Shown piece by piece: positions 4,810-56,463 of a stretch of 64,000 nt of DNA; within the stretch, counting starts at the first letter, position 1; the number at the start of each line of letters is the position of its first letter. The notes under the pieces are model-generated. The model did no database searches and was not told where the DNA came from. It saw nothing but the letters and a program-made list of their open reading frames with translations. A program made the translations under genes and the position numbers. Source of the DNA: an uncultured Chloroflexia bacterium (GTDB lineage: Bacteria; Chloroflexota; Limnocylindria; Limnocylindrales; CSP1-4); NCBI GenBank assembly GCA_963788685.1, contig CAWBHP010000001.1, positions 48,661 through 112,660 on the forward strand, written 5' to 3'.

Positions 4810-6173
4810 CGGGCTGCCCCGGCCTTCTGGCGTTCGGCGCGGGGCTTCGTGGCCGGCTTGGCCGCGAACATCGCCGCGGCGCGCCGTCCGCTGGCGACCG
4901 CAACGCCGTCGCCGCAGCGCTCCGAGAGGTAATGCTGGCCGGCGAGCAGGCTCCCGACGATCGCCACGTTGTCGAACGCGACCCTGCCGCGGCCGTCGAC
5001 CGGGTGGAGCTCCGCGTCGGTCCGGATGCCCGGCGGCCTCGAGCGGATGGCCGGCCGGATCGAACGGATCGTCCGCCAGCCACTCCCCGACCGGCGGGGC
5101 CTCGACGGGCAGGCCGAGGAGCGGCTCCACGAGCGTTCCGTCGGCCCTGCCGATGAGCCCGCCGCCGGCAATCCCGCCCGTCGCCAGGACGAGGCCGCCA
5201 GTCCGGAACACGCGATCGCGCGCCGCGGCGGCGACCGTGACCGACGGTGACCCGTCGGCCCGCAGTCTCGATCCGGACCACCTCCTCCCCCACCGAGATC
5301 CTGCCGCCGCGCCGGCGAAGCGCCGCGCGGAGCGCCTCGAACAGGCGCAGGCCGGGCACGCTCGGCGGGATCAGCGGCACCTCGAACGGGATGAGCGGCA
5401 GCGACCGCGACGCGTCGTCGAACGCGGCGGCGTGGTCGGCCAGCCCGAGGACGGCAGGGAGGCGCGATCCGGCCGGGCGCGCCACCGCGCCCTCGCAGCG
5501 CGGCCGCGATCGCGGCGAACGCGTCCGCGCGCCACGACGGATCGTCGAACAGCCGGGCGAGGTGGAGCGCCGTCAGGTTTCGCCGGCCGGCGATGTCAGG
5601 CAGCTCCACGACGAGCGCCTCGACCGACGCGGGCCGGTCTCTTGCGCGCGGCGACCGGCCCCAGACCGACGGGCGCTCGAGGCTTGCGGCGATCGCGCCC
5701 GGCCAGAAGTCCTTGAAGCCGGCGGGGCCACAGATGACGAGCCGCTCGTCGGGCCTCCAGGGCCGGAGGGCCGCCGCCTGGGCGGTGGGCAGCGTGCCGG
5801 CCCGCCGCGTCGCGCCGATCGCAGTCGGGACTGGTCGAAGCGGCTCGTCGAGGTCGCCGAGGTAGGTCAGACCCTCCGCGGCGAGGATCCCGCGCAGCCA
5901 ATCGATCGCCGGCGCCAACGTCACGTCCAAGGAACGCGTACGGGTGTCCCGGCATCGACGCAAGCTGGGCGATGCCCTCGGCGGCCGTGGCGCTGCCCGG
6001 CGGGCGCGGCGACGTCGAGGCCGCCCGACGTCCAGTGGGTCGCCGCGTGGCCGCGGGCGACGACGTCGACGCGCGCGCCCGCGTCGGCCAGGGCGATCGC
6101 GGCCGTCATGCCCGGCCAGGCCCGCGCCGACGACGACGACGTCAGACGACGGCACGGTCGGCCTCGTGCTCAT
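4806..6173 (-). CDS. glpB: Anaerobic glycerol-3-phosphate dehydrogenase subunit B, frameshifted
   Basis: DVVVVGAGLAG, PPSVPGLRL, VLATGG..GGGL, CGDGVAVASG. Confidence 0.9.
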   Translation of the reverse strand: MSTRPTVPSSDVVVVGAGLAGHDGRDRPGRRGRARRRRRPRPRGDPLDVGRPRRRRARRAAPRPPRASPSLRRCRDTRTRSLDVTLAPAIDWLRGILAAEGLTYLGDLDEPLRPVPTAIGATRRAGTLPTAQAAALRPWRPDERLVICGPAGFKDFWPGAIAASLERPSVWGRSPRARDRPASVEALVVELPDIAGRRNLTALHLARLFDDPSWRADAFAAIAAALRGRGGAPGRIAPPCRPRAGRPRRRVRRRVAVAAAHPVRGAADPAERARPAPVRGAPRGASPARRQDLGGGGGGPDRDCGPTGHRRSRSPPRRAIACSGLAASSWRRAGLPAAGSSAGPTERSWSRSSACPSRPRRSGSGWRTIRSIRPAIRSRPPGIRTDAELHPVDGRGRVAFDNVAIVGSLLAGQHYLSERCGDGVAVASGRRAAAMFAAKPATKPRAERQKAGAAR

Positions 6174-7754
6174 CCGCGAGCGCGCCGATCCCCAGCACCC
6201 CGGAGTACAGGCCGGCGACGAGCCACAGCTCCTGCAGCTGGCGGCCCCAGGCGATCGGTCGGGTGCCGCGATACCGCTCGGCCAGGAAGTCGAGGAGGAT
6301 CCGATCGACCGGCCTCGGGCGGAAGACCCGCGGCGACGGCCTCCCGCTCGGCGATCACGCCGGCGGCCCGGAACGTGCAGAACCCGCCCTGGCACGGCCC
6401 CATGCCCAGCCGAGTGCCGCGCCGGACGTCGTCGAGGCTAGCACGGCCAGCGCTCGTCGAGGAAGTCGTCGAGCGCCGACGCGGGTCACGAGCTCGCACT
6501 CGCAGATGAGATCGGCATCGCCGCCGCCCCGTGCCTCGTGCTCCGCCAGCCGGTGGCCAAGCCAGTAGGTCTGGCCGATCGCCCTGGCCGGGCAGGACCG
6601 CCTCGGCGGTCGTCGAGCGCTCGGTCACGCCGAGCTTTGCCGCGACGAGGTCGGCGGTCTCCTCGGCCATGAGCCGGTACGTCGTCAGCTTGCCGCCGAC
6701 AATCGAGACGAAGTTCGCAACGCCGTCTCGCGGTCCGTGATCGATGACGACGTGCGATCTCGAGATCTCCCGGCCGTCGTCTGCCGCCCCGCCGCTCGAC
6801 GCTTCATCCTGGTAGAGCGGTCGCACACCGGCGTACGCCCGGAGAAGCCGCATCCGGCGCAGGTCCGGGAAGAGCTTGGTGCCCTCGACCATCAGCTCCT
6901 CGACCTCGTCTCGGCCGATGCCGTAGTGGTCGGGGTCGTCGACCGTCATCTCGGTCGTGCCGAGGATCGCGACCGAGTGGACCGGGACCATGATGTCGCC
7001 ATCGCCCGGCGGGTGGCAGCGGTTCACGACCGTGTCGGTCATCCGCTGGTTGAAGATCAGCATCGTGCCCTTGCCCGGGGCCATCGCGAGCTCGACGCCG
7101 GCCAGCCCAGCGACGATCCCGGCCCAGGCGCCCGCCGCCGACACGACGGCCTTCGGGGCGATCCGGCTGACCGTGCCGCTCCGTTCGTCGGCGATGTCCA
7201 CGGTCGCGATCTCGTCGCCGATCCGCTCCATCGCAACGACCCGCTGGTACGGCCGAGCCTCGGAGCCACGGTTCACGGCATCGCGCCACGTTGGCGGCGA
7301 TCAGCTGCCACGGCTCGACGGCGGCGTCCGGGACGTGGAACGCACGTCGGATCGCTGGGTTGAGGGCGGGCTCGCGCCGGAGGAGGCTCGCGACGGGCGC
7401 TCCTCGCACGGAACGCCGGCGGCGACGCAGGCCGCCGCGAACCGGTCCGGGTAGTCCTCCGGGTCGTCGGGCGTCGCGACGAACCAGCCGCCGGTGTCCT
7501 CGATGCAGGCCGGGGCGATCCGCCGCAGAACGCGATTCTCGAGCGATGCACTCGCGAGCCGCCAGCGGATCCTTGACGACGTAGCGGCCGCCGGAGTGGA
7601 GCAGGCCGTGGTACCGGCCACTCGTGCCGGTCCCGAGGTCGCCCTTCTCCACGAGGAGGCAACGCAGGCCGCGGCGGGCCAGGTCGCGGACGATGCCCGC
7701 TCCGGTGGCGCCGCCGCCGATGATGAGGACGTCGACGGCCTCGACGGCCGTCAT
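6170..7754 (-). CDS. glpA: Anaerobic glycerol-3-phosphate dehydrogenase subunit A, frameshifted
   Basis: IIGGGATGAG, GTSGRYHGLLHSGGRY, YAGVRPL, GGKLTTYRLMAE, TRLGMGPCQGGFC. Confidence 0.93.
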
Positions 7755-20243: not shown

Positions 20244-21158
20244 TCAGGCCCGCGGGTGAGCGCGAGCGTAGACCTCTCGGACCCGTTCTCCGGTCAGGTG
20301 CGTGTACAGCTGGGTCGTGCTGATACTCGCATGTCCAAGCAACTCCTGAACGATGCGCAGGTCGGCCCCACCCTCGAGCAGGTGGGTGGCGAACGAGTGG
20401 CGCAGCGTGTGGGGGCTGATCCGATCGCTCAGCCCGGCCGTCCGGGCGGCGGCCTTGACGATGCCGAACCCCTGCTGCCGGGCGAGGCGTCGGCCGCGGT
20501 CGCCGATGAACAGCGGGCCGCCACGGTCCGGCGACACGTGACCGATCGCGAGCAGCGCCGGGCGGCCCTCCGTCAGCCACCGGTTCAGCCAATCGAGCGC
20601 CACGTCGCCGACCGGGACGAGCCGCTCCCGGTCGCCCTTGCCGATGACCCGCACGAATGCGCCGTCGACCGACAGCTGCTCGACGTCGAGCCCGAGCGCC
20701 TCGCTGATCCGCAACCCGGCCGCGTAGAGGAGCTCGAGGAGCGCCCGCCCGCGGAGGTCCGGGGCGGCCTCGAGGAGCCGGTCGACCTCGTCGATCGTCA
20801 GCGTCTCCGGCAGCAGCCGCGGCTGGCGCGGCAGATCGATGTGCTGCGCGACGTCGACGCGGATCAGCCCCTCACCGAACGCGAAGCGGTAGAAGCCGCG
20901 GATGCTCGCGGCGCGGCGGCGGAGCGACGTCGGGGCAAGTCCCGGATCGTGGGGCCGGCCGCGGCGGGTCCGCGCCGCTAGGTAGCGGAGGGCCGCATCG
21001 GGCGTCCGGTCCCACTCCGAGGCACTGCCCCGGGCGGAGGCGAAGTCGTCGAGATCGCCGCGGTAGGCGCGGATCGTCGCCGGCGAGAGGCCGCGCTCGG
21101 CCCGCAGGTACGTCAGGAAGTCGGCGACGGCGCGGTCGAGCGTTGTCGGGCTCGGCAC
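20244..21158 (-). CDS. xerD: Tyrosine recombinase XerD
   Basis: GLRISE, GKGDRERLVP, HTLRHSFATHLLEGGADLR, LLGHASISTTQLYTH; housekeeping context. Confidence 0.9.
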   Translation of the reverse strand: MPSPTTLDRAVADFLTYLRAERGLSPATIRAYRGDLDDFASARGSASEWDRTPDAALRYLAARTRRGRPHDPGLAPTSLRRRAASIRGFYRFAFGEGLIRVDVAQHIDLPRQPRLLPETLTIDEVDRLLEAAPDLRGRALLELLYAAGLRISEALGLDVEQLSVDGAFVRVIGKGDRERLVPVGDVALDWLNRWLTEGRPALLAIGHVSPDRGGPLFIGDRGRRLARQQGFGIVKAAARTAGLSDRISPHTLRHSFATHLLEGGADLRIVQELLGHASISTTQLYTHLTGERVREVYARAHPRA

Positions 21159-33123: not shown

Positions 33124-33160
33124 GAGAGGCCCCGTCGGGACAACCGGCGGGGCCTTTCTT
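33124..33160. terminator. Terminator between convergent peptidase genes
   Basis: AGGCCCCGTCGG...CCGGCGGGGCCT followed by TTCTT. Confidence 0.75.
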
Positions 33161-34343
33161 CATTCGTTCGGCAATGCGCCGACGATGAGCGGCTCGCGCG
33201 GGAAGAGCGTCAGGCGCTCGACCTTGCCGGCGCTTGCGTCGAGGAACACGAGATCCTCGATCCGAACGCCCGTCTCGCCCTCGAGGTAGATCCCGGGTTC
33301 GACCGAGAAGACCGTCGGCGACGGCAGTCGGGCATCCGTCGCCGAGCGACTGAGCGACGGTCGTTCGTGGGTCGCGAGCCCGATCCCGTGACCCAGGCCG
33401 TGACCGAACGCCGGCCAGCGGCCGTCTGCCTCGATCAGCTCCCGGGCCAGGGCGTCGAGGTCACGCCCTGACGGCAGCTCCAGCTCCGCCCCGATCGTCG
33501 CCTCGAGCTGCGCGATCGCCGCGGCCTGTGCTGCGGCCACGAGCTTGTACACCGCGGCGTCACGCTCCGATGGCTCGCCGACGAAGAGCGTCCGCGTCAT
33601 GTCGCTCCGATACCCGGCGACCTGCGCCCCGAAATCGAAGAGCACCACGGAGCCGTTCGTCAGCGGTGCCTCCCCGGGCGATCCATGCGGCAGGGCTGCC
33701 TGCGGGCCTGCGAGACAGGTCGGGTCGAAGGCGACGGCCTCCGCGCCGCCCGTCCGGAGGAGCCACTCCAGCTCGAGCGCGAGAGCGGCCTCGGTGCGCG
33801 CCCGGCTTGATCCGTGGCAGGAGCGACGCGAGCGCACGATCGGCGACCGCGCACGCGGCCGCAATCCGCTCGACCTCGGCCGCCTCCTTGATCTCGCGAT
33901 CCGCCTCGATCCAGCCTTCGACCGGGACGAGCTCGACGCCCGGTGCCGCCTCCTCCAGCCGGCGCCAGAGCGCGTGAGATACGAACCCCGCCTCGACGGC
34001 CACCCGCTTGGCACCGACAGATGCCGCGAGCGACGCCCACTTCTCCGGCAGGTCGTAGCCCGCGTCCTCGATCCGAGCGCCCTTCGCCTCCCGCCCGGCC
34101 TGGATCGTGTAGCGCGAGTCGGCGAGGACGACGACCTCGCTCGCCACCGACGAGGAACTGGCCGGAGTGGCCCGCGACCTTCTCCTCGCCCTCCCCCAGC
34201 ACGAAGCCGGTGAGGTAGCGCGTGTTCTCGCGGCGGACGCCGAAGTAGGCCTCGACGTTGTGCGCGGCGAACCTCGCCCGAAGGCGGCGCGAGCCGCGCC
34301 GGCCGAGCGGCCCGGTCCGCTTCGGCCCAGCGGGCGTGATCAT
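33160..34343 (-). CDS. Xaa-Pro aminopeptidase (M24), frameshifted
   Basis: ALPHG, DFGA...YRSDMTRT, HGLGHGIGL..HE, VEPGIY, GVRIED; typical efp neighbour. Confidence 0.92.
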
Positions 34344-34401: not shown

Positions 34402-35772
34402 TCAGTAGCCGAACTCCTCGCGGTTGGCATCGTGCTCCGCCTGGTTCCTCGCGAAGGCGTGGCCGTCGGATCCGTCGTTCTTCGCCAGGAAGAAGACGTA
34501 GCCCTCCTTCGTGTCGGGAGCGAGCGCGGCGTCGATCGAGGCGAGGGTCGGCGTGCAGATCGGGCCAGGGATGGGCCCCTCGGTCTGATAGGTCTGGTAG
34601 CCCTGGAGGTCCTCGGGCAGGGTGATCTCCGCCATGCCGATGTCCTTCGGGACAGCCCAGAAGAGATACTCGCGCCAGCTCTCGAAGTCCGTCTCAGCGA
34701 GCTTCACGGTGTCGTAGCGCATAGATGACGGTCGGGTCCGCCTGGAGCAGCCGGTGCCCGAGCTTCCCGTCGAGGCGGTTCTGGTAGACGCCCGCGATCA
34801 GCGCCCGTTCGTCGTCGAGGATCGCCTCCCGCTCGACGAGCGACGCCAGCGACAACACCTCGCGGAACGTCATCCCGCGCTCGGCCGGAACGTTCATCCG
34901 GCCCTCGATCGCGGTCTGGAAGCGATCGAGCATGAGCCGAACCAGCTCCTCGCCCGTCGTGTCGGGCAGGACGCGGTACGTCGCCGGCCAGAGGTAGCCC
35001 TGGAGCGAGGCGCCGTCCGGGAGCTCCAGCCATTCGTAGTCGGCGAGCAGCTCGGGGGTCGGCTTCGACGCGAGGTCGTAGAACTCGCGCGGATCCATCT
35101 TCAGCCCATCGATCGTCTGGAGGAGGGCCGTCACCTGCTCGAGCCGAAGGCCGGTCCGAAGCTTGATCTCGACGTACGGGATCGCCGGCGGCGCCAGGAG
35201 CGCGGTGACGATCTCATCGGGCGTCATCGACCGGCGGAGGATGAACTCGCCCGACTTGAGCTTGGCGGTGAGGTCGCGCTGGACGGCGATGTAGACGAAT
35301 GCGCGGCGGTCCTTGACGAAGCCCTCTTCCTCGAGCTTCGCGCCGATCGTCGTGGCGCTCTCGCCTGAGCCGATGACGAAGGCCACTTGCTCGGTGTCAT
35401 CCGATGCCGGATCCGTGAGCTTCTTGCCGAGGTCCTCCCGTACGAGGTCGGCGACGAACGGCACGCCGAGGGCGCCGGGGCTATCGGCTGCCCAGCCGAT
35501 CACGGCGCCCCGGACCACGGGTCGCAGAACCGTGACCAGCGCCGCCAGCACGATCGCGGCAAGGATCAGGGCGAACAGCAGGAACCTGAGCAGGCCACCG
35601 TGCCCGCCACCGCCGCCGCCGCGCCGCGCCGCCCGTATCCCCCGCCGTTCGATCCGTGGCCGTTACCCGGTGGCCGCCGGTACTCCGGCTCCCACGCCTC
35701 CTCGCGCGCTTCCTCGGCGATCGGGTGGGCCTGCCGTGCGTCCCGGGGGCGTCCGCCGGAGCGGAGGGTCAT
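34402..35772 (-). CDS. mltG: Endolytic transglycosylase MltG, frameshifted
   Basis: LQGYLWPATY, LASLVERE, IAGVYQNRL, LQADPTV, YQTY...GPIPGPICTP. Confidence 0.92.
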
Positions 35773-36317
35773 CGTGTGGTCTCCATGTCGTCGTCAGTGG
35801 TTGTTCCCCCGTCCGCCAGGTTCGCCGGGTTCGCGTGGCTCGCTGGGTCCGCGTGATTTGCGCTCGCCGCGTTCGCCGCGCGGGCATCGAGCTCATCCTG
35901 GAGGATGATCGCCGCCGCTTCGCGATCGACCCGGCCACGGTGGGCGTCGCGCTGAGTCCTGCTCGGTGGGCCGCCCGAGCGTCCCCGCTTCATCGGGCCG
36001 ACGCGCGCCTCGGCGAGGTGGCTCGACAGGCGCTCGTCGCGCAGGGTAATTGTGACGCCAACGAGCGGTTCGAGCGCAGCCACCCAGTCGCGGGTGATCT
36101 CGGCCTGCGTTCCTGACGCGCCGGACGCGTGAAGCGGCAACCCGACGACGAGCTCGTCCGCGTCCTGCTCGATCGCGACCCGGGCGATCGCGGCCGCGTC
36201 CTGGGCCGGCGTCGAACGGCGAAGGGTGACGAGCGCCGTCGCCATTCCTCCGTCGCGATCCGCCACCGCCAGCCCGATCCGCCGCTCGCCGAGATCCGCC
36301 CCCAGAATCCGCGTCAC
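35769..36317 (-). CDS. ruvX: RuvX/YqgF family nuclease
   Basis: LGADLGERRIGLAVAD, VVGLP, DERLSS, VDREAAAIILQ. Confidence 0.93.
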   Translation of the reverse strand: MTRILGADLGERRIGLAVADRDGGMATALVTLRRSTPAQDAAAIARVAIEQDADELVVGLPLHASGASGTQAEITRDWVAALEPLVGVTITLRDERLSSHLAEARVGPMKRGRSGGPPSRTQRDAHRGRVDREAAAIILQDELDARAANAASANHADPASHANPANLADGGTTTDDDMETTR

Positions 36318-38209
36318 GGGGCCGGGCTTGCGACCGGCAGGCCACTCGTGGCCGGATCGGGCGCGGTGGATGGTTTTGCGGTGACGGTAGGCCGAGGCGA
36401 GGCAGGGGGCCGCACCGACGCGGGCGGCGACGGCGACCCGTCAGGCGACCCGTCCGACTGCCCGACGATCTCGATCGTGACCCGCGACTCGATGCCGGGG
36501 ATCGTGGTGACCCACTCGGGCCACGGGGTGATCACGACATCGCCGAACTGGCCGAGGATTGAGCGCCCCTCGTCGACAGTCCGACCCTTGATCGCGGCAA
36601 GCAACTCTGCCGGGTCGAGGATCGCGACGCGTTGCGCCCTGGCGGTCACCGGGAACGAGACCTCGCCGCCCGTCACGGTCGGATCGCCGGGCGTGATCTC
36701 GACGGAGCCCTCGACGAGGCGGTGGTCCGCGCCGACGTTCGAGAGGAGCCGCGTCTCAGCGATGCTCATGACCGGCGAGGCATCGACAGCGATCACCGTT
36801 CCGCGCGCGGTTAGTTCGAGATCGAACGTCGCGACCTCCTTGCCGACGAGCGTGGCCGGATCCACCGTCGGCGTCGAATCGCCCAGTTCCGCCGTCTCGG
36901 CGAAGACCGTGGCGTTCGCCGGGGCGCCCGCGCCATCGGCGAGCGCGGCCTCGAACGCGTCGGCGAGTTTCGCCTGGAGGGCAACCATGGCGGCGTCGAT
37001 ATCCTCCTGGCCGATCCGTGGGAACTCCTCGTGGACCCCGCCTGCCGTCGGGTTGGGGTTCCGGACCGTGGTCAGCTGCGGGTCCTCGTCGCGCGGCACA
37101 ACCTTGATCGCGTTGGTCGGGACGTTGCCCGCCGTGCCGGCCTTCACCGCGACGACACTGACCGACTTGGACGATGGCCGGATCTCGATCGGCGTCCCGA
37201 AGATCACCTCCGCCTTCGGCAGCGTGATCGTCGCCCTCGTCGCGAAGGCGATGCCGCCTTCGGTCGAGACGATGCTCCCCTTGGCGATCGTGTTCTCGGC
37301 CCCCGAGTTGTAGCTCTGGAACACGACCTCGCCGGCGGCTTGTTCCTCCTCGACCCGCTTGTCGGTGGAGCTGAACGTGTCCGACGCGGAGACCGGCACG
37401 TCCAGGCGCTGAGCGGGGACGAGATTCTCCGCGGCGTTCGGCGAGGTGATGTCCGGGTCCGCCCGGACGACGAGGGCGATCGGGCCGATGCTCTCAGGGC
37501 GGGGCGTGACCACGATCTCGGCTGACGGCAGGAAGAGGAACGCCCCGACACCGGCCACGACGAGGACGAGGACGGCGGCGGCGGCCGTGACGAGGATCGG
37601 GGCGCCGATCCGTGGCATCGACCGGCTCCTGACGACGGCGATGCGACTGGGGGCCGACGGGATTGCCGACGACGATGGCGACGGAGAACGCGGCAGGGCA
37701 GGGCTTGCGACAGCGATCGTCGGAGCCGGTGTCAGGGGCAGCGTCGCCTGCTCGGCCGCGACTTGCTTCGCGGCCTTTCGGCGGGATGTGGCGGCGGAAG
37801 CAGCCGGACTCGCGCTGGCAGCGCCCGTGGCGATTGCCGTAGCGGCGGGCACGGCCGCCGCCGCGGATGCTGCTAGCGGCGCCTGTTCGTTGGTCGTCGC
37901 GCTCGCGCCGTCGGAGCCCGAACCGCCTGAGGTCCCAGCGGCTGATTCCCACTCCGCGACGCTCGAGAAAACCGGCAGACCGGCCGAGGCCGCGAGAGCC
38001 CGCGTCGCAGGATCGGTCGCGACGATCGACAGCCGCCGATTGTTGACCATGGCCTCGCGCGACAGCAGGCGGAAGTTCATTCGCGACGTGGCGATCCGCG
38101 AGCCGTACGGCACGACGAGGGCGACCTTCGTGGCCTCGGACCCGCGGATGCGGGCGGCCGCGGAGGTGATTTCGTCGTCGACGTCGAGATAGACGGTGCC
38201 GGTCGCCAT
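36314..38209 (-). CDS. Bitopic membrane protein with an N-terminal alpha/beta domain and an extracellular baseplate-J-like region
   Basis: YLDVDDEITS N-terminal domain, Ala/Pro/Ser linker, one TM helix (LVLVVAGVGAFLFLP), then AAGEVVF..TIAKGSIVST..F.T...VVAVKAGTAGNV...VRNPNPTAGG. Confidence 0.75.
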   Translation of the reverse strand: MATGTVYLDVDDEITSAAARIRGSEATKVALVVPYGSRIATSRMNFRLLSREAMVNNRRLSIVATDPATRALAASAGLPVFSSVAEWESAAGTSGGSGSDGASATTNEQAPLAASAAAAVPAATAIATGAASASPAASAATSRRKAAKQVAAEQATLPLTPAPTIAVASPALPRSPSPSSSAIPSAPSRIAVVRSRSMPRIGAPILVTAAAAVLVLVVAGVGAFLFLPSAEIVVTPRPESIGPIALVVRADPDITSPNAAENLVPAQRLDVPVSASDTFSSTDKRVEEEQAAGEVVFQSYNSGAENTIAKGSIVSTEGGIAFATRATITLPKAEVIFGTPIEIRPSSKSVSVVAVKAGTAGNVPTNAIKVVPRDEDPQLTTVRNPNPTAGGVHEEFPRIGQEDIDAAMVALQAKLADAFEAALADGAGAPANATVFAETAELGDSTPTVDPATLVGKEVATFDLELTARGTVIAVDASPVMSIAETRLLSNVGADHRLVEGSVEITPGDPTVTGGEVSFPVTARAQRVAILDPAELLAAIKGRTVDEGRSILGQFGDVVITPWPEWVTTIPGIESRVTIEIVGQSDGSPDGSPSPPASVRPPASPRPTVTAKPSTAPDPATSGLPVASPAP

Positions 38210-38219
38210 CGAGGCCAGA

Positions 38220-39482
38220 CTAGACCTTCATCGCCCGGAGGACCCGACGTAGGGCGGCATCGAGCGGATCTTCGGTCGTCTGGAGCTCGATCGCCTGGTA
38301 GGCAAGGCCGAGCGGCGTCACGTCCTGCTGGTCGACGAGGAGGTTCGTCGCATCGGAGATCGTCTCGATCTGGTCAGGGGCCATCACGACGACCTCCGGC
38401 GGCCGGGCGAACGAGAGGCGCTTCCAGAACCGCTCGCTGGCGATCGCTTCACGGATCTCCGGGAGTCTCGAGCCACCGCCGCAGATGTAGATCCGACTCG
38501 GCAGCAGATCGCCGCCGCCGAGCTCCTCCATGACGAGCTCAACTCCCGCTGCCCAGACCTCGACGTCGTCGGCGACGATCTTGGCGATCTCGTCGCGTCG
38601 CTCGACGCTGATGCCCCGGGCGTAGTCGACCTTCAGCGATTCGGCACGCGGGAACGGGAGATCGAGCCGATCAGCCAGGGACTTCGTGAAGGCGCGCCCG
38701 CCGAGCGCGAACATCCGCGTGCCCTCGATGCCGCCGGATCGGACCAGGGCGACATCGGTCGTCCCGCCGCCCACGTCGACGAACAGGGCACCGGCCTGGC
38801 GGATCGACTCGGAGCCGAGGACGCGGGCGACGGCGTACGGCTCGGCCACAACCTCGAGCAGCTCGAGATCCAGCTGCGACGTGACGCTCTGCAGGGCGCC
38901 GAGGTGGACGAGCGGGGCGAACGCGTTGAAGATCCCGATCTTCACGTGGCGTCCCTGGAACCCGACCGGGTTCGTCAGCGCGTAGCCGTCGATCGCGGCC
39001 CCGACGACGGCGGCGTGGACGAGCCGGACGTCGACATTCGGGAGGCCGGTCTCCCACGTGATCGAGCGCTCGGCCTCCCGGAGGGCTTCACGTTGGACGA
39101 AGTCGATGAGCTTCTGGAGCTCGGACTCGCTGATCGGCTGGTCCGGCTTCTTGCGCTCCTGGCTGTGGGTCGTCGTGAAGCCCTTGACGAGCTCGCCGGC
39201 GATCCCGACGACGACCTGGGTCGGCCGGAAGCCGGCCATCTCCTCGGCCTCCTGAAGGGCGACCGCGCAGTTGTCGACAACCGCAGCAATGTCGGCGACC
39301 GTGCCGGACTGCATGTGGCTGAGGCCCTGGCGCTTCCGCCCGACGCCGCGGACCGTGCCATGGCCGTCGGTGCCGATCTCGAAGACAAGCGCCTTGGCGA
39401 ACTCGGTCCCGATGTCGAGCGCTGTGCAGATCGCGAGCGACTCGCCGCCGTCCCGCTGGAGGATCTTCCGCCAGAAGGCCAT
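38220..39482 (-). CDS. FtsA-like actin-family ATPase (orphan paralogue)
   Basis: ALDIGT, IDGY..TNPVGFQG (1C subdomain), EPYAVA, VDVGGGTTD, CGGGSRL. Confidence 0.9.
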   Translation of the reverse strand: MAFWRKILQRDGGESLAICTALDIGTEFAKALVFEIGTDGHGTVRGVGRKRQGLSHMQSGTVADIAAVVDNCAVALQEAEEMAGFRPTQVVVGIAGELVKGFTTTHSQERKKPDQPISESELQKLIDFVQREALREAERSITWETGLPNVDVRLVHAAVVGAAIDGYALTNPVGFQGRHVKIGIFNAFAPLVHLGALQSVTSQLDLELLEVVAEPYAVARVLGSESIRQAGALFVDVGGGTTDVALVRSGGIEGTRMFALGGRAFTKSLADRLDLPFPRAESLKVDYARGISVERRDEIAKIVADDVEVWAAGVELVMEELGGGDLLPSRIYICGGGSRLPEIREAIASERFWKRLSFARPPEVVVMAPDQIETISDATNLLVDQQDVTPLGLAYQAIELQTTEDPLDAALRRVLRAMKV

Positions 39483-40124
39483 TCAGATCAGTCCGGGATC
39501 GGGCAGCCTGCCCAATGCCAAATAGCGCCAGAGTCGGACCATGAACACGATCGCGAAAATCGTCAGCACCTGAGCGTACGAGAACCACGATTGCGCGCCA
39601 ACGACGTTCGGGCCTTCGCCCACCAACAGCAGCGCCATCGCGAGAAGACTGCCGGCTCCCCCAAGTTGTCCTGCCCAGCCAATCCGCCGCAGCCTGACAT
39701 CCATCCCCGAGACGATGCCGCCGGCAATGATGAGCCATAGACCGAAGCCGACATTTGCGCTGACGAAGACCGGGACGTCGAGAAGGCTCACATCGGCGCC
39801 CGCCAGCGTCAAAGCATTTGACGCGATGACGACGGACGCTCCCAAGCCGCCCGCGGCCAATGCGACCAGAGCGCGGCGCGGTTTCTCTTCTTGAAGCCAC
39901 CCGTGGATGCCGACGACGGTTGCCAGCTCCGCCAGCGCGCGTATGGCCTCGGACACAAGGAAGGTCGGCCGTGACAGCCGCTCTTCGACTGTTCCAGTGC
40001 CCGCCAAGACGGCAGCAATCTGGAGCAGGATTGCGAGCGCGGCGATGAGAGCCGTCCAGCCCGCGACTTTGCGGGATCGTGCGTGGGCGACGATGTTGTC
40101 GTCACGAGTCGGGGAAAGCTCCAT
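39483..40124 (-). CDS. Hypothetical multi-pass membrane protein
   Basis: About six hydrophobic segments; less GC-biased than neighbours. Confidence 0.7.
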   Translation of the reverse strand: MELSPTRDDNIVAHARSRKVAGWTALIAALAILLQIAAVLAGTGTVEERLSRPTFLVSEAIRALAELATVVGIHGWLQEEKPRRALVALAAGGLGASVVIASNALTLAGADVSLLDVPVFVSANVGFGLWLIIAGGIVSGMDVRLRRIGWAGQLGGAGSLLAMALLLVGEGPNVVGAQSWFSYAQVLTIFAIVFMVRLWRYLALGRLPDPGLI

Positions 40125-40128
40125 TCGC

Positions 40129-40710
40129 TCAGGCGTTCCAATCGGGAACGACGAGGTCGCCGGTCACGAGCCGGGTGCCGAGGACCACGAAGAATGTCGT
40201 CGATGCGCCGAGAAGCAACCCGCCCCCGAGCGCCGAGAGCGGATGTCGTTCGTTGCCGGCGGCGAAGCCGTACCCGACGGCGACGAACCCGATGCCTGAC
40301 CCGATTGCCAGCCAGGCGAGCGCACCCTCCAGGGCTGTATTTCCAGCGAGAAGGCCGCTGGCGATGTACCACAGCCCGATCACCGCTCCACACAGCAGGA
40401 CCCATTTCTTGGTTTGCTCGTACGTCACCCGCCGGGCGACGAGTAGCGCCTGGAGCGCGGCCACGGCCAGCATCGCGCCGATCCCGATCGCCGCTACGGG
40501 CAGGACGACCGTCGTCACCGTCTCGCTCTCGAGCGTCGCTACGAGCAAAGCAACGGGGATCATCGCCAGCATCAGGACGACGCTGCTCGCATCGTTCAGC
40601 CGGCCCCACTCCCCGCCTCGCGAGAAGAAGAGGACGAGCGTCACGGCACCAACGACGGTCGCCGCCGCCGCGACGAGCGCACTCCAGCCCGCAGCGACCT
40701 CCGGCGTCAC
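40129..40710 (-). CDS. Hypothetical multi-pass membrane protein
   Basis: About six hydrophobic segments; GTG overlaps the alaS stop. Confidence 0.75.
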   Translation of the reverse strand: MTPEVAAGWSALVAAAATVVGAVTLVLFFSRGGEWGRLNDASSVVLMLAMIPVALLVATLESETVTTVVLPVAAIGIGAMLAVAALQALLVARRVTYEQTKKWVLLCGAVIGLWYIASGLLAGNTALEGALAWLAIGSGIGFVAVGYGFAAGNERHPLSALGGGLLLGASTTFFVVLGTRLVTGDLVVPDWNA

Positions 40711-43469
40711 GCCGGGCTTCCGACCGTTCGCGTCACCGTGGCTTCGATCGCGGCGAGTGCATCGGGCAGCCCTTCCCGGCGCGAGCCCTTGCCCTGGGCC
40801 ATTTCGGGTCGACCGCCACCCCGGCCGTCGATCGCGGCGACGGCCTCACGCACGAGGTCTCCCGCCGAGATTCCGCGACCGACGAGGTCGTCGCTGACCG
40901 TCACGAAGATCTGCGGCTCGTCCGCGTCCAGGCCGAGGGCGATGACGCCCGAGTCGAACACTCCGCGGACGTCCTTGGCGGCGGCCTTCAGCGCGTCGAT
41001 CGATTCGTATGGCCCGGCGAAGCTCACGAGGCTCACGCCTGGGGCTACCTCCTGGGAGGCCGCGGCGAGCTCGCCCGGCTTCGGCAGCCCCGCTCCCCCG
41101 CCCGCCTTCAGCCGACGCCGCGTCTCGCGGAGTTCGTCCTGGAGCGCCCGGATTCGATCGGGAAGGGCCTCGGCCGACTGGGCACCGGCTGTATCCGTGG
41201 CGGCTTCGAGCGTCGCGAGCCGCGCGTCGAGCCAGGCGTCCGCCCCGGCGCCCGTGAGGGCCTCGATCCGGCGCATCCCCGAGCCGATCGACCGCTCGCC
41301 GGTGATGACGAAGCCGCCGATCTGGCCGGTCGCGCGGCAATGCGTCCCGCCGCACAGCTCGTGGCTGTAGCCCTCGACCCGGACCGTTCGGACGGTTTCG
41401 CCGTACTTCTCGTCGAAGAACGCGTCGGCCCCGGAAGCGATGGCCTCCTGCATCGTCATGAAGCTGGGAGTGACGGTTCGGTCATCGCGGATGACCCGCC
41501 GCACCTCCGCCTCGATCGCCGCCAGCTCGTTCCGTTCCAGTCCGCGGTCCAGGGGGAAGTCGAACCGGAGGTAGTCCGGGGTCACGAGCGAGCCCGCCTG
41601 GCGTGCGCCCTCCCCGACGACGTTGCGAAGCGCCCGGTGCAGCAGGTGCGTTCCCGTGTGGTTGCGCATGGTGTGGGCGCGCCGCTCAGCGTCGACGACG
41701 GCATCAACCGTCTCGCCGACCCGCAGCCGCCCGTGAAGCGTCCCGCGATGGACGATCAGCCCACCGAGCGGCCGCTGGGTGTCGCTTACGGCGAACAACG
41801 GCGACCCGCCTCCGGCCTCTCGTAGCTCGCCGCGGTCGCCGATCTGGCCGCCACCCTCCGCATAGAACGGCGTCCGATCGAGCACGACCTCGGCCTCGCC
41901 CTGGCCGGTCAGCTCGTCGAACTCGATGCCGTCACGGACGATCGCGACGACCCGGCCCTGCGACTCCGTGCCCTCGTAGCCCAGGAACTGCGTGTCGCCG
42001 GCTCGAGCGTGGATCGCTCCGTAGAGAGCCGCCGTCTCGGCCTGCTTCGACAACTCTGCCTTCTTGCCGCTCCTGCTCCGCTCGCGCTGTTCGGCGAGAG
42101 CGGACTCGAACCCGTCGCGGTCGACCCGGACCCCGTACTCGGCCGCCAGCTCGACCGTCAGGTCGAACGGGAATCCGAACGTGTCGTGGAGCTTGAAGGC
42201 GACGTCGCCCGGCAGGATCGGGGCGTCCGGCGGCAGGTCCTCCGCCCGACGTCCGACCGTCCGCTCGGTGGCCGCGATCCCGGCGAGAGCCTCCTCGAGC
42301 AGCTTCGTGCCCGCGTCGAGCGTCCGGCCGAACTGCGCCTCTTCCCGCCCGATCGCCGCAAGGACCTCGTCCCGGCGCTCGAGCAGGTGCGGGTAGGCGT
42401 CGGCCATCGTGTCGATGACGACCGTGGCGGTCTCCGCCATGAACGGCTCGCGCCGCCCGAGCAGCCTGCCGTGGCGGACCGCGCGGCGAAGGATCCGGCG
42501 AAGGACGTAGCCGCGGCCCTCGTTCGACGGCAGGACGCCGTCAGCGACGAGGAACGTCACGGCCCGGGAGTGGTCCGCGATCACCTGGTAGCTGAAGCGC
42601 TCGGCCTCGAAGGCGTCGGGGTCGTGGCCCAGCAGCTCCCGCATCCGGGCGTGGATCGGCTGGAAGATGTCGATGTCGTAGTTCGTCGGGACCTGCTGCA
42701 GAACGCTGGCCAGGCGTTCGAGGCCAAGGCCTGTGTCGACACTCGTGAACGGCAGCGGGTGGCGGCCGTCCGGCCGCTGGTCGAATTCCATGAAGACCAG
42801 ATTCCAGATCTCCAGCCAGCGGGGGCACGTCTCGCTGTGGTCAGGTATGCAGTGCGGCCCCTCCGAGAATTGCTCGCCGCGGTCGAAGTGGATCTCGCTG
42901 CACGGCCCGCACGGGCCCGTCTCGGCCATCCGCCAGAAGTTCTTGTCGTCGCCGGCGTCGACGTTGCCCCACTTCGCCATCCGCTCCGGGGGCAGCCCGA
43001 TCTCGTCGCGCCAGACGTTCCAGGCGACCTCGTCATCGGTGTAGGTCGTCGCGGCCAGCCGTTCCGGCGGGATTCCGAGATCCGTGGTCAGGAAACCCCA
43101 CGCCCACTGGATCGCGTCGCGCTTGAAGTAGTCGCCGAAGCTCCAGTTGCCGAGCATCTCGAACAACGTGTGATGGCGCGGCGTCCTGCCGACCTCCTCG
43201 AAATCGTTGTGCTTGCCGGCGACCCGCAGGACGCGCTGGTAGTCGGCCGCCCGGTTGTACGAGCGCTTCTCGGCGCCGGTGAAGACATCCTTGAACTGGA
43301 CCATGCCCGAGTTCGTGAAGAGGAGCGTCTGGTCACCCGCCGGAACGAGGCTCGCGCTGGGCACGATCGTGTGACCGCGTTCCTCGAAATACTCGAGAAA
43401 CCGCCTGCGGATCTCGGCCGAGGACAGCGGCTTGATCCTTGCGTCGTGGGTGACGGGCGGACTCGGCAT
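40707..43469 (-). CDS. alaS: Alanine--tRNA ligase
   Basis: LLFTNSGMVQFK, HHTLFEMLGNWSFGDYFK, GPCGPCSEI, NHTGTHLL, ELCGGTH, GGGRPEMAQG. Confidence 0.98.
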   Translation of the reverse strand: MPSPPVTHDARIKPLSSAEIRRRFLEYFEERGHTIVPSASLVPAGDQTLLFTNSGMVQFKDVFTGAEKRSYNRAADYQRVLRVAGKHNDFEEVGRTPRHHTLFEMLGNWSFGDYFKRDAIQWAWGFLTTDLGIPPERLAATTYTDDEVAWNVWRDEIGLPPERMAKWGNVDAGDDKNFWRMAETGPCGPCSEIHFDRGEQFSEGPHCIPDHSETCPRWLEIWNLVFMEFDQRPDGRHPLPFTSVDTGLGLERLASVLQQVPTNYDIDIFQPIHARMRELLGHDPDAFEAERFSYQVIADHSRAVTFLVADGVLPSNEGRGYVLRRILRRAVRHGRLLGRREPFMAETATVVIDTMADAYPHLLERRDEVLAAIGREEAQFGRTLDAGTKLLEEALAGIAATERTVGRRAEDLPPDAPILPGDVAFKLHDTFGFPFDLTVELAAEYGVRVDRDGFESALAEQRERSRSGKKAELSKQAETAALYGAIHARAGDTQFLGYEGTESQGRVVAIVRDGIEFDELTGQGEAEVVLDRTPFYAEGGGQIGDRGELREAGGGSPLFAVSDTQRPLGGLIVHRGTLHGRLRVGETVDAVVDAERRAHTMRNHTGTHLLHRALRNVVGEGARQAGSLVTPDYLRFDFPLDRGLERNELAAIEAEVRRVIRDDRTVTPSFMTMQEAIASGADAFFDEKYGETVRTVRVEGYSHELCGGTHCRATGQIGGFVITGERSIGSGMRRIEALTGAGADAWLDARLATLEAATDTAGAQSAEALPDRIRALQDELRETRRRLKAGGGAGLPKPGELAAASQEVAPGVSLVSFAGPYESIDALKAAAKDVRGVFDSGVIALGLDADEPQIFVTVSDDLVGRGISAGDLVREAVAAIDGRGGGRPEMAQGKGSRREGLPDALAAIEATVTRTVGSPA

Positions 43470-43583
43470 CGGCCGCAATGGTACCGAACGGGCGATCTAC
43501 GGACCGGGGCGTCTCCGGCCGACCGGGCCGATCGTTCCACCGCGCCTGCTACAGTCCGGCCACGACCGTCCCTGGGAGCTCCG

Positions 43584-54525: not shown

Positions 54526-56463
54526 CTAGGCCTCGACGGCTCGGCTCAGGTCCTCCTGGCGGCCCTTCTCGCGGCGGCGGTCGTGCTCCGACAGCGCCCG
54601 CTTCCGGAGCCGGATGGAGGCCGGCGTGATCTCGACCAGCTCGTCGGCCGCGATGAACTCCAGCGCCGACTCGAGGGTGAGTGGCCGCGGCGGCGTGAGG
54701 CGCAGCGACTCGTCATGGGAGTGGGTCCGGATGTTCGTCAGCTGCTTGGTCTTCGTCGCGTTGACGTTCATGTCGCCCGATCGCGAGCACTCGCCGACGA
54801 TCATCCCCTCGTAGACCTCGACCCCCGCCCCGATGAACAGCTCGCCTCGCTCCTCGAGGTTGAACAGCCCGTACGCGTTGGACGTTCCGCTGCGATCCGC
54901 GACGAGGACGCCGTTCGTCCGATGCGTCACGTCGCCGGCCCACGGCCCGTAGCCCTCGCCGATCTGGTGGAGCAGCGCCGTCCCACGGGTGTCGGTCAGG
55001 AGCTGGCCGCGGTAGCCGATGAGCCCGCGGACCGGCAGCACGAACTCCATCCGGACGCGCCCGTCCGTATCGGTCGTCATCTGCTCGAGGCGGCCCTTGC
55101 GGTCGGCGAGCGCCTCCTGGACCGCGCCGATGTAGTCCGGCGGGATGTCGATCGTGATCCGCTCGTACGGCTCCTGGGTCTGGCCATCGACGGTCCGCAA
55201 CAGCACCTCCGGGCGAGAGGCGGTGATTTCGAACCCCTCGCGCCGCATCTGCTCGAGGAGCACGGCGAGCTGGAGCTCGCCCCGGCCGCGGACCTCGAAC
55301 GTGTCGCCGCTCTCGGTCGGGCGGACCTCGATCGAGACGTTGCCGAGCGTCTCGCGGTCGAGCCGGGCCTTGATCTGGCGCGACGTCACGTACTTGCCTT
55401 CGCGCCCCGAGAGCGGCGAGGTGTTCACCCCGAACGTCATGCTGAGCGTCGGGGCGTCCACGTCGAGGCGCGGCAGGGGCCGTGGGTCGGCCGGATCGGT
55501 CAGCGTGTCGCCGATCGTCACCTCCGGGCAGCCCCGCCACCGACACGATGTCGCCGGGTCCCGCCTCGGCGATGTCGATCCGCTCGATGCCGTGGGCCGT
55601 CTGGAGCGACGGTCACCGTGCCGTTGAGGGTGACGATCCGGCCCGGCTCGACGGTGCCGGCGGTGTCGTCGGCCTCCTCGCGCTGGACCATGATCCGCTG
55701 GCCGGTCCGGATCGTCCCGTTCCAGATCCGCCCGACCGCCATCCGCCCGACGTACTCGTTGGCCGACAGGTTCGTCACGAGCAGCTGGAGCGGGTGATCC
55801 GGGGTGTACGACGGCGGCGGCGTGACCTCGACGAGGATGTCGAGGAGCGGCCGGAGGTCGGAGCCGGGCTCATCGAGCTTCCTGGTCGCCGTCCCGAGCT
55901 TGGCGTTCGTGTAGACGACCGGGAACTCGATCTGATGCTCGTCGGCCCCCAGGTCCATGAACAGCTCGTAGACCTCGTCGAGGACCTCGGCGCGCGCGGG
56001 CGTCGGATCGGTCGATCTTGTTGAGGGCGACGACGACCGGCAGCCGCCGGGCCATGGCCTTCTGAAGGACGTAGCGGGTCTGGGGCAGCGGCCCCTCCGC
56101 GGCGTCAACGAGGAGCAGGACCGAGTCGACCATGAGCAGCGACCGTTCGACCTCGCCGCCGAAGTCGGCGTGGCCCGGCGTGTCGACGATGTTCAGCCGG
56201 ACGTCGCCGTGGTCGACGGTCGTCTGCTTGGCGAGGATCGTGATCCCCTTCTCGCGCTCGAGGTCGCCCGAATCCATCACCCGATCGACCACGGCCTCGT
56301 TCGAGCGGAAGGTCCCCGTCTGGCGGAGCATCGCGTCGACGAGCGTCGTCTTGCCGTGGTCCACGTGAGCGACGATGGCGATGTTCCGCAGATCGCTGCG
56401 GATCGCGAGGTTCGGGGCGGTGGGCACGGGCGGGCGGTTCTCCAAGGCTATCGGGTCGGCCAT
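54526..56463 (-). CDS. typA: Translational GTPase TypA/BipA, frameshifted
   Basis: [60 protein letters not shown]. Confidence 0.96.

Follow-up and report, generated by a model that had tools for sequence, protein, structure and literature searches.

A Divergent FtsA-like ATPase Co-located with a Bitopic Baseplate-Wedge-like Protein in the alaS–ruvX–mltG Gene String of Chloroflexota

Introduction

To our knowledge, few bacterial actins have a defined cellular role, namely MreB, FtsA, the ParM-like proteins, MamK, and, recently, FcmB. The closest described counterparts of the gene pair reported here are FtsA–FtsN and MreB–RodZ, in each of which an actin homologue has a bitopic partner. FtsN has a short cytoplasmic tail and a SPOR domain; in RodZ, a cytoplasmic domain with a fold of its own is joined by a disordered linker and a single transmembrane helix to a beta-rich outer domain. 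The present study deals with a stretch of 64,000 nucleotides (hereafter, the window) from an uncultured soil bacterium (Chloroflexia) of the Limnocylindrales (assembly GCA_963788685.1, contig CAWBHP010000001.1, positions 48,661 to 112,660), in which the gene of an FtsA-like actin-fold ATPase of 420 residues (38220–39482, minus strand) is followed by the gene of a bitopic protein of 631 residues (36314–38209, minus strand; hereafter, the partner) with a baseplate-wedge-like extracellular domain. What is new is a distinct FtsA-type lineage that is strictly co-located with a bitopic protein of this fold, the kind of system, an actin homologue with a bitopic partner, being known. A search of the accessible literature found no description of the pair. 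Current database names for the two genes include "cell division protein FtsA", "cell division FtsA domain-containing protein", "rod shape-determining protein", "SHS2 domain-containing protein", and "baseplate J/gp47 family protein", and this routine annotation is corrected by the results given below.

Identity of the FtsA-like ATPase

The ATPase matches the Pfam family PF14450 (FtsA) with 58 bits. With the FtsA equivalog model TIGR01174, it scores 108.1 bits, which is under the cut-off of 175.85 bits, and the FtsA-like copies of a 101-genome sub-sample score 62–116 bits with the same model. The pilM model TIGR01175 gives 30.4 bits against a cut-off of 133, and of the MreB models, TIGR00904 gives 24.8 bits (cut-off 365.75) and NF010539 gives 26.5 bits (cut-off 293). 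The best solved relatives of the protein are FtsA chains (7q6f, 94 bits, profile positions 14–287), and PilM is found with 58 bits over the C-terminal half only.

Since a canonical ftsA (425 bits) lies directly upstream of ftsZ (418 bits), together with ddl and murG in a dcw cluster on contig 11 of the same assembly, the window gene is a second copy rather than the FtsA of this genome, and the candidate explanation that it is the only ftsA was rejected. The two proteins share 22% identity over residues 14–287. Two true mreB genes are also present elsewhere in the assembly. A quick maximum-likelihood analysis was made of 53 sequences, with the MreBs of the genome as the outgroup. In the resulting tree, 20 FtsA-like proteins form one clade (Shimodaira–Hasegawa-like approximate likelihood-ratio test, SH-aLRT, 100) and 31 canonical FtsA proteins form another (99), with stems of 2.04 and 1.11 changes per site, respectively; FtsA was taken from Chloroflexota only, so the tree places the lineage relative to FtsA of this phylum and not among all bacterial FtsA. 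Canonical FtsA exceeds its cut-off in 96 of the 101 sub-sampled genomes, including carriers of the extra copy. As judged from sequence comparison, this second copy is a divergent paralogue of FtsA and constitutes a new subfamily in the FtsA branch of the bacterial actins. An earlier note made from the letters of the window without database searches (hereafter, the sequence-only reading) had taken the gene for an orphan of the FtsA type and had left its standing to a phylogeny and to a search for a separate ftsA–ftsZ locus, both of which bear it out.

The actin motifs pointed out in that note are conserved in an alignment of 20 orthologues. They comprise the phosphate-1 motif LDIGTE (residues 22–27; 39402–39419), the phosphate-2 motif FVDVGGGTTD (residues 234–243; 38754–38783), in which D236, G238, and T242 are invariant, and the adenosine motif ICGGGSRLPE (residues 333–342, with CGGGS at 334–338; 38457–38486), in which G335 and G336 are invariant, all on the minus strand. 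The protein appears to be competent for nucleotide binding. The 1C/SHS2 insert in place of subdomain 1B, which the note had also listed, is a putative feature of the ATPase: the alignment with FtsA is collinear through residues 14–287, and PF02491 (SHS2_FTSA) is matched in 5 of 20 FtsA-like orthologues, the window copy not being among them, and PF11104 (PilM_2) is weakly matched in 18 of 20. The C-terminus LDAALRRVLRAMKV (residues 407–420; 38223–38264, minus strand) is predicted from its hydrophobic moment and charge to form a basic amphipathic helix. It has the highest helical hydrophobic moment of the protein (muH 0.68–0.73) and a net charge of +3, and a C-terminal muH of at least 0.45 is found in 19 of 20 orthologues. 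This helix may target the ATPase to the membrane, as in FtsA.

Architecture of the Bitopic Partner

The AlphaFold2 model of the partner, built on 17 sequences, has a mean predicted local distance difference test (pLDDT) value of 76 and divides the protein into several parts, all coordinates being on the minus strand. A cytoplasmic N-terminal alpha/beta domain (residues 1–92; 37934–38209; hereafter, the N-domain) is modelled with confidence and carries an acidic loop (DDE 11–13, and D66). It is connected by a disordered linker rich in Ala, Ser, and Pro (residues 93–202; 37604–37933; pLDDT <50), the length of which varies among orthologues, to a single transmembrane helix (residues 203–229; 37523–37603), for which the Kyte–Doolittle maximum is 2.73 and the model gives a helix at 203–225. 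The beta-rich extracellular domain (ectodomain; residues 230–585; 36455–37522; pLDDT ~90), which Foldseek marks as similar to baseplate wedge J/gp6, is followed by a tail rich in Pro, Ser, and Ala (residues 586–631; 36317–36454) that is disordered according to its composition and a pLDDT below 50. Within the ectodomain, the Baseplate_J beta-barrel core (residues 287–393; 37031–37351) holds most of the invariant residues (GNV 361–363, N384, and GG 390–391).

The N-terminus is placed in the cytoplasm because the protein has a single hydrophobic segment and obeys the positive-inside rule, with four Lys/Arg residues flanking the segment before it and one after it. In a 920-residue paralogue from Ktedonobacteria, a Ser/Thr kinase domain (Pkinase, 141 bits) replaces the N-domain and is followed by the same transmembrane and Baseplate_J part. 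This exchange of the N-domain for a kinase fixes the topology of the partner, with the N-terminus inside and the ectodomain outside, and the paralogue shows the ectodomain in use as the outside module of a signalling protein. The paralogue is encoded at 4845–7607 (minus strand) of locus L049, on contig 2 of genome G093, and the same genome also holds an ordinary ATPase–partner pair (locus L048). In other Ktedonobacteria (loci L168–L172, L175–L177, L179–L185, and L188), the partner reaches ~870–1020 residues, with an extra ~250–350 residues between the N-domain and the transmembrane/ectodomain part; a scan of one such protein gave no Pfam family in the extra stretch.

The relation of the ectodomain to the wedge protein J/gp6 of phage baseplates is one of true homology. 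The Pfam family PF04865 (Baseplate_J) matches residues 289–395 with 28.1 bits, above the gathering threshold of 21.1 bits, and is found in 18 of 25 partner orthologues (best E value 1.7e-13). PHROG_6 matches the partner with an E value of 4.7e-10, and Foldseek aligns the ectodomain with wedge proteins of phages, diffocins, and extracellular contractile injection systems (eCIS) over ~340–420 columns with E values of 1e-7 to 1e-4. The single-pass, baseplate-J-like character assigned to the protein from its letters is thus upheld. In phages, the wedge J/gp6 fold is an oligomerising scaffold and not an enzyme. The residues that are invariant in the ectodomain lie in the barrel and consist of Gly, Asn, Pro, and Ala. 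This is not a catalytic set, and it agrees better with a scaffold or a binding module than with an enzyme.

Distribution, Linkage, and Constraint

The distribution was surveyed in 301 evenly sampled Chloroflexota genomes. Of these, 92, belonging to 12 GTDB families, have an FtsA-like orthologue, and a clean score gap separates the orthologues (at least 155 bits) from canonical FtsA (at most 92 bits). In all 90 carriers examined, the gene that immediately follows, on the same strand, is that of the partner. Adjacency was checked on fetched loci by tblastn or hidden Markov model (HMM) searches in 63 cases and on coordinates in the other 27, which include the unpublished genome G173 and genome G249; for the latter, the match listed is to the ectodomain alone and lies 1.6 kb downstream, a distance that agrees with the long form of the partner in Ktedonobacteria. 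The survey leaves out G272 (unpublished) and G084, in which the gene is split between two short contigs. The occurrence of similar pairs in Chloroflexota, which the sequence-only reading had mentioned, is confirmed, and its proposed survey of gene neighbourhoods finds the pair co-conserved.

The partner family is large: a threshold of E ≤ 1e-3 gives 13,095 representative clusters, and one of E ≤ 1e-30 gives 4,152. In the sample, the partner is present in at least 133 genomes, a floor resulting from a stricter first look, and it has no accompanying FtsA-like match in 63 genomes, with the partner at a contig edge in 2. The order partner–ruvX–mltG is kept both in loci with the ATPase (type A) and in 11 loci without it (type B), ruvX being undetected in one of the latter, and alaS lies directly upstream of the partner in 5 of the 11. 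The invariant core is partner–ruvX–mltG, and the ATPase gene, in the loci that have it, is without exception inserted immediately ahead of the partner. The alaS–ruvX–mltG synteny is common, and the link to ruvX–mltG extends across the phylum. Because the partner stands alone in the 63 genomes, the module is partner-centred, and the ATPase is an accessory that is kept in ~60% of the partner-bearing genomes sampled. The idea that the two genes form a module accordingly holds for their co-location and fails for the ATPase as an obligate half.

The pair is carried by cultured Ktedonobacteria (family f23), in which the partner has ~900 residues and a long linker, the best named match being Thermogemmatispora argillosa with 98% identity, and small Dehalococcoidia-like genomes (family f19) have neither gene. 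Within the genus, identity is 87% for the ATPase, 48% for the partner, and 84% for the partner N-domain. The best 120 database matches of the ATPase are all at least 90% identical, and partner proteins from contigs of matching length are ~50–60% identical. These identities mark the ATPase as far more constrained than the partner. Five residues of the N-domain (P34, S42, R47, L48, and D66) show higher conservation in loci with the ATPase than in loci without it (61 type A versus 10 type B sequences), which is a weak hint in view of the small and interrelated type B set.

The best 80 loci of an alignment search with the ATPase all belong to Chloroflexota-type metagenome-assembled genomes, except for one 2-kb contig labelled Methylomirabilota. 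The FtsA-like protein of this contig (locus L060; 2,057 bp, labelled Candidatus Methylomirabilota) shares 91% identity with that of the window; the contig being so short, its label is most likely a binning error and not evidence for another phylum. Searches with a protein language model, which give clusters without alignments, returned look-alikes of the ATPase (FtsA-like clusters of ~417 residues, scores 0.94–0.98) that are commonest in Saccharimonadota, Peregrinibacteriota, Minisyncoccota, and WWE3, and look-alikes of the partner ("baseplate J/gp47" clusters of ~542 residues, scores 0.91–0.92) that are commonest in Saccharimonadota. The presence of the pair in Patescibacteria is a lead only.

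Gene String and Assembly Quality

The pair lies in a minus-strand string of seven open reading frames (ORFs), in the order alaS, a 193-residue protein, a 213-residue protein, the FtsA-like ATPase, the partner, ruvX, and mltG, with successive gaps of -4, 4, 0, 10, -4, and -4 bp. The G+C content of the window is ~70%, at which promoter and terminator scans gave no informative signal. The ORFs of the ATPase, the partner, and ruvX, the spacer of 10 bp between the ATPase stop and the partner ATG, and the overlap of the partner stop with the ruvX start (GTGA, -4) are as the sequence-only reading had given them. The string is opened by alaS (40707–43478, minus strand; a 923-residue ORF), which is kept as the upstream neighbour in related loci. 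The two proteins that follow it, of 193 residues (40129–40710, minus strand) and 213 residues (39483–40124, minus strand), are multi-pass membrane proteins without a known family, giving no match in Pfam, NCBIfam, or PADLOC. They are lineage-specific context outside the conserved module. One of them is matched only in the near relative L010; elsewhere, alaS directly precedes the FtsA-like gene. Downstream of the partner, ruvX (YqgF; 35769–36317, minus strand) is recognised by PF03652 (98 bits) and TIGR00250 (74.5 bits).

The last gene, mltG (34402–35772, minus strand), begins with an ATG at 35772 that overlaps the ruvX stop (ATGA, -4), as had been claimed, and is frame-interrupted, so that its description as a single ORF does not stand. 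YceG matches occur on two ORFs, and the pieces lie in three frames: 35772 to ~35570, 35551–34694, and 34722–34402. The middle and C-terminal parts are contiguous in a single frame in 58 of 62 related loci holding both. Short-read contigs of relatives from two DNA runs, which do not come from the window strain, have one letter fewer at 34719, the exact site of the second break, and 7 letters more or 5 fewer at 35618–35623, either of which restores the first break. Because relatives keep a single frame and the short-read contigs repair both breaks, the frameshifts are probably assembly indels; alternatively, mltG may be a recent pseudogene. Between the window and a 93%-identical relative, 18 gap openings were counted over 3 kb, and an M24 (pepP-type) peptidase gene (33160–34147) and typA (54526–56108) are likewise split between two or three frames. 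The assembly comprises 3.36 Mb in 16 contigs with a completeness estimate of 64%, and a probable richness in indels may be the cause of this low value.

The gene annotation spans ~20–60 kb of the window. In this part, the surroundings are housekeeping genes (xseAB, efp, dxs, NAD kinase, aspS, typA, an ABC transporter, and peptidases), and the claim that the window contains no ftsZ, dcw, pil, or phage genes is borne out there, bar one Xer-type tyrosine recombinase. The latter (20244–21158, minus strand; Phage_integrase and SAM-like N domains) lies amid housekeeping genes and is probably XerC/D rather than a mark of a prophage. Among sequencing runs, contigs from two runs, for which the RNA label is a guess, cover the copies of both genes in relatives and are not evidence of transcription; one of these contigs, of 1,047 nt and from a run labelled RNA-Seq, spans the FtsA-like/partner junction of a relative (window 37924–38966) and cannot show a transcript. 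No RNA run was found among the runs sharing sequence words with the window, and the word share is at most 0.16 in all of them.

Possible Function of the Pair

Based on these results, the two genes are tentatively proposed, at somewhat less than even confidence, to constitute a conserved envelope module within alaS–ruvX–mltG, in which a membrane-bound FtsA-type ATPase docks on and positions a bitopic baseplate-like partner. In this proposal, the ATPase would sit on the inner face of the membrane by means of its C-terminal basic amphipathic helix and would possibly polymerise. It could then dock on the cytoplasmic domain of the partner and thereby cluster or position the partner along the membrane. 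Such clustering may bring the ectodomains into order within the wall zone, or else their state may be what the ATPase responds to; either way, the state of a cytoplasmic filament could be coupled to growth or remodelling of the cell envelope. We infer docking, polymerisation, and a role at the wall from the features described above. Several observations weigh against this proposal. The partner with a conserved N-domain persists in the 63 sampled genomes that have no FtsA-like gene, so the N-domain has a function independent of the ATPase. The same string also contains alaS and ruvX, with roles in tRNA and RNA, which makes guilt by association with mltG ambiguous, and the locus may simply tolerate insertions into what is a universal gene string. 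Furthermore, many Chloroflexota families in the sample have neither gene, and family scans recognised no wall-binding domain (LysM, SPOR, or PASTA) in the ectodomain.

A different function of the partner would be outside-in signalling, in which a wall or surface cue is sensed by the ectodomain and passed on through partner switching of a STAS-like N-domain, reaching the ATPase in genomes that have it and another target in the others; the ATPase would be a regulated output and not a positioning scaffold. The fusion of the same ectodomain to a Hanks-type kinase in the Ktedonobacteria paralogue is in line with such a role, comparable to the PASTA repeats fused to PknB-type kinases, and conservation of the N-domain in genomes without the ATPase would also be accounted for. 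However, the STAS-like fold match of the N-domain has a Z score in a range that may mean a mere common arrangement, and Pfam STAS is matched in 1 of 20 orthologues with an E value of 0.11; a PIN-like fold is the other candidate. In addition, the locus has no conserved gene for a kinase, a phosphatase, or a sigma factor, and the very strong constraint on the ATPase suits a polymer at least equally; signalling is regarded as an unlikely explanation. The two proteins could also be co-transcribed neighbours that do not bind each other, with the ATPase serving other partners, as a second FtsZ anchor or in the canonical divisome, and the partner acting apart with MltG or the wall. Genomes with the partner alone, and the membership of the ATPase in the FtsA family at the superfamily level, are compatible with this possibility. 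Against it, the ATPase is never found away from the partner among the carriers examined, despite deep divergence across the 12 families, and never in a dcw context, while canonical FtsA is retained. The higher conservation of the five N-domain residues in the presence of the ATPase also counts against mere neighbourhood, if weakly, given the 10 related type B sequences. Independence of the two proteins is considered quite unlikely, and the docking of the ATPase on the partner is preferred.

Two further identities, suggested by the gene order and by the fold of the ectodomain, were rejected. An FtsA/PilM-type ATPase followed by a bitopic protein, with weak PilM_2 matches in most orthologues, is reminiscent of a PilM–PilN-like inner-membrane platform of a pilus or secretion system. 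The score with the pilM model is far from its cut-off, however, and pilM was found at E ≤ 1e-25 in none of 101 sampled Chloroflexota. The loci contain no pilN, pilO, pilP, secretin, or ATPase genes of such systems, and the partner has a folded N-domain of 90 residues instead of the short peptide of PilN. A pilus platform is regarded as very improbable. The Pfam, PHROG_6, and structural matches to baseplate wedges could, on the other hand, mean that the gene is left over from the tail of a prophage or from a contractile injection system. Yet the only match of PF04865 in the whole assembly is the partner itself, and no sheath, tube, spike, or other wedge genes were found in the annotated part of the window or in related loci. 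A tblastn search with the partner against 50,697 phage records gave no match at E ≤ 1e-3. Moreover, the partner is anchored in the membrane with a domain outside, and its place in a housekeeping operon is fixed phylum-wide. A remnant of this kind is refuted as the current function and retains next to no credibility, and an ancient exaptation of the fold is possible.

A bolder extension of the docking proposal, which is speculative and judged unlikely in its full form, would regard the pair as a third actin-based envelope system beside MreB–RodZ and FtsA–FtsN, ancestral to Chloroflexota and Patescibacteria. A dedicated FtsA-like filament on the membrane would order an extracellular lattice or ring of an exapted baseplate-wedge fold. 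Where MreB is lacking, as in Ktedonobacteria and possibly in the candidate phyla radiation, this filament would act as the principal cytoskeleton of morphogenesis. Ktedonobacteria are reported in one paper to lack mreBCD. At the level of the genes, an FtsA-like lineage under strong constraint is found across no fewer than 12 of the families sampled from a major soil phylum, cultured Ktedonobacteria among them, and a phage baseplate fold is reused on the cell surface in an operon that also holds the gene of MltG. MltG is a terminase of glycan strands. If the pair works together, it would provide a testable handle on how monoderm Chloroflexota, and perhaps the ultra-small Patescibacteria, shape or monitor their envelope.

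Comparison with Known Systems

The pair resembles FtsA–FtsN in that the ATPase belongs to the FtsA branch by HMM scores and best solved relatives, is collinear with FtsA through the 1C-bearing region, has a putative C-terminal amphipathic helix, and is accompanied by a single-pass protein. In contrast to FtsA, it falls under the equivalog cut-off, forms its own clade, is encoded between alaS and ruvX and not beside ftsZ, and coexists with canonical FtsA; unlike FtsN, the partner possesses a folded cytoplasmic domain of 90 residues and a baseplate-like ectodomain. With MreB–RodZ, the similarity is an analogy in the way of working, as both combine a membrane actin homologue with a bitopic protein that has a cytoplasmic domain, a disordered linker, one transmembrane segment, and a beta-rich outer domain. 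However, the partner has no sequence or fold relation to RodZ, and MreB models give 25–27 bits on the ATPase. PilM–PilN shares the gene order, from ATPase to bitopic protein, and the weak PilM_2 matches, but differs in the pilM model score, in the lack of pilM among the 101 sampled Chloroflexota, and in the lack of pilus genes nearby.

The ectodomain of the partner has the wedge fold in common with P2 gpJ, Mu gp47, T4 gp6, the wedge proteins of Afp and other eCIS, and diffocin. Contrary to these baseplate wedges, the partner is anchored in the cell membrane, has a cytoplasmic domain, and is encoded on the chromosome in a housekeeping context, where it is vertically kept without sheath, tube, or other wedge genes. 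GlxA, a membrane-anchored copper oxidase of Streptomyces, shares only a beta-barrel with the partner, which has no oxidase domain. The nearest recent analogue, an extra bacterial actin with a membrane partner, comes from filamentous cyanobacteria, in which FcmB and FcmC are reported to affect cell shape and FcmB to be derived from ParM-type plasmid actins (PMC12645912). The likeness lies in the combination of an additional actin with a membrane partner, whereas the window ATPase is of the FtsA type and not of the ParM type, and the two membrane partners are unrelated.

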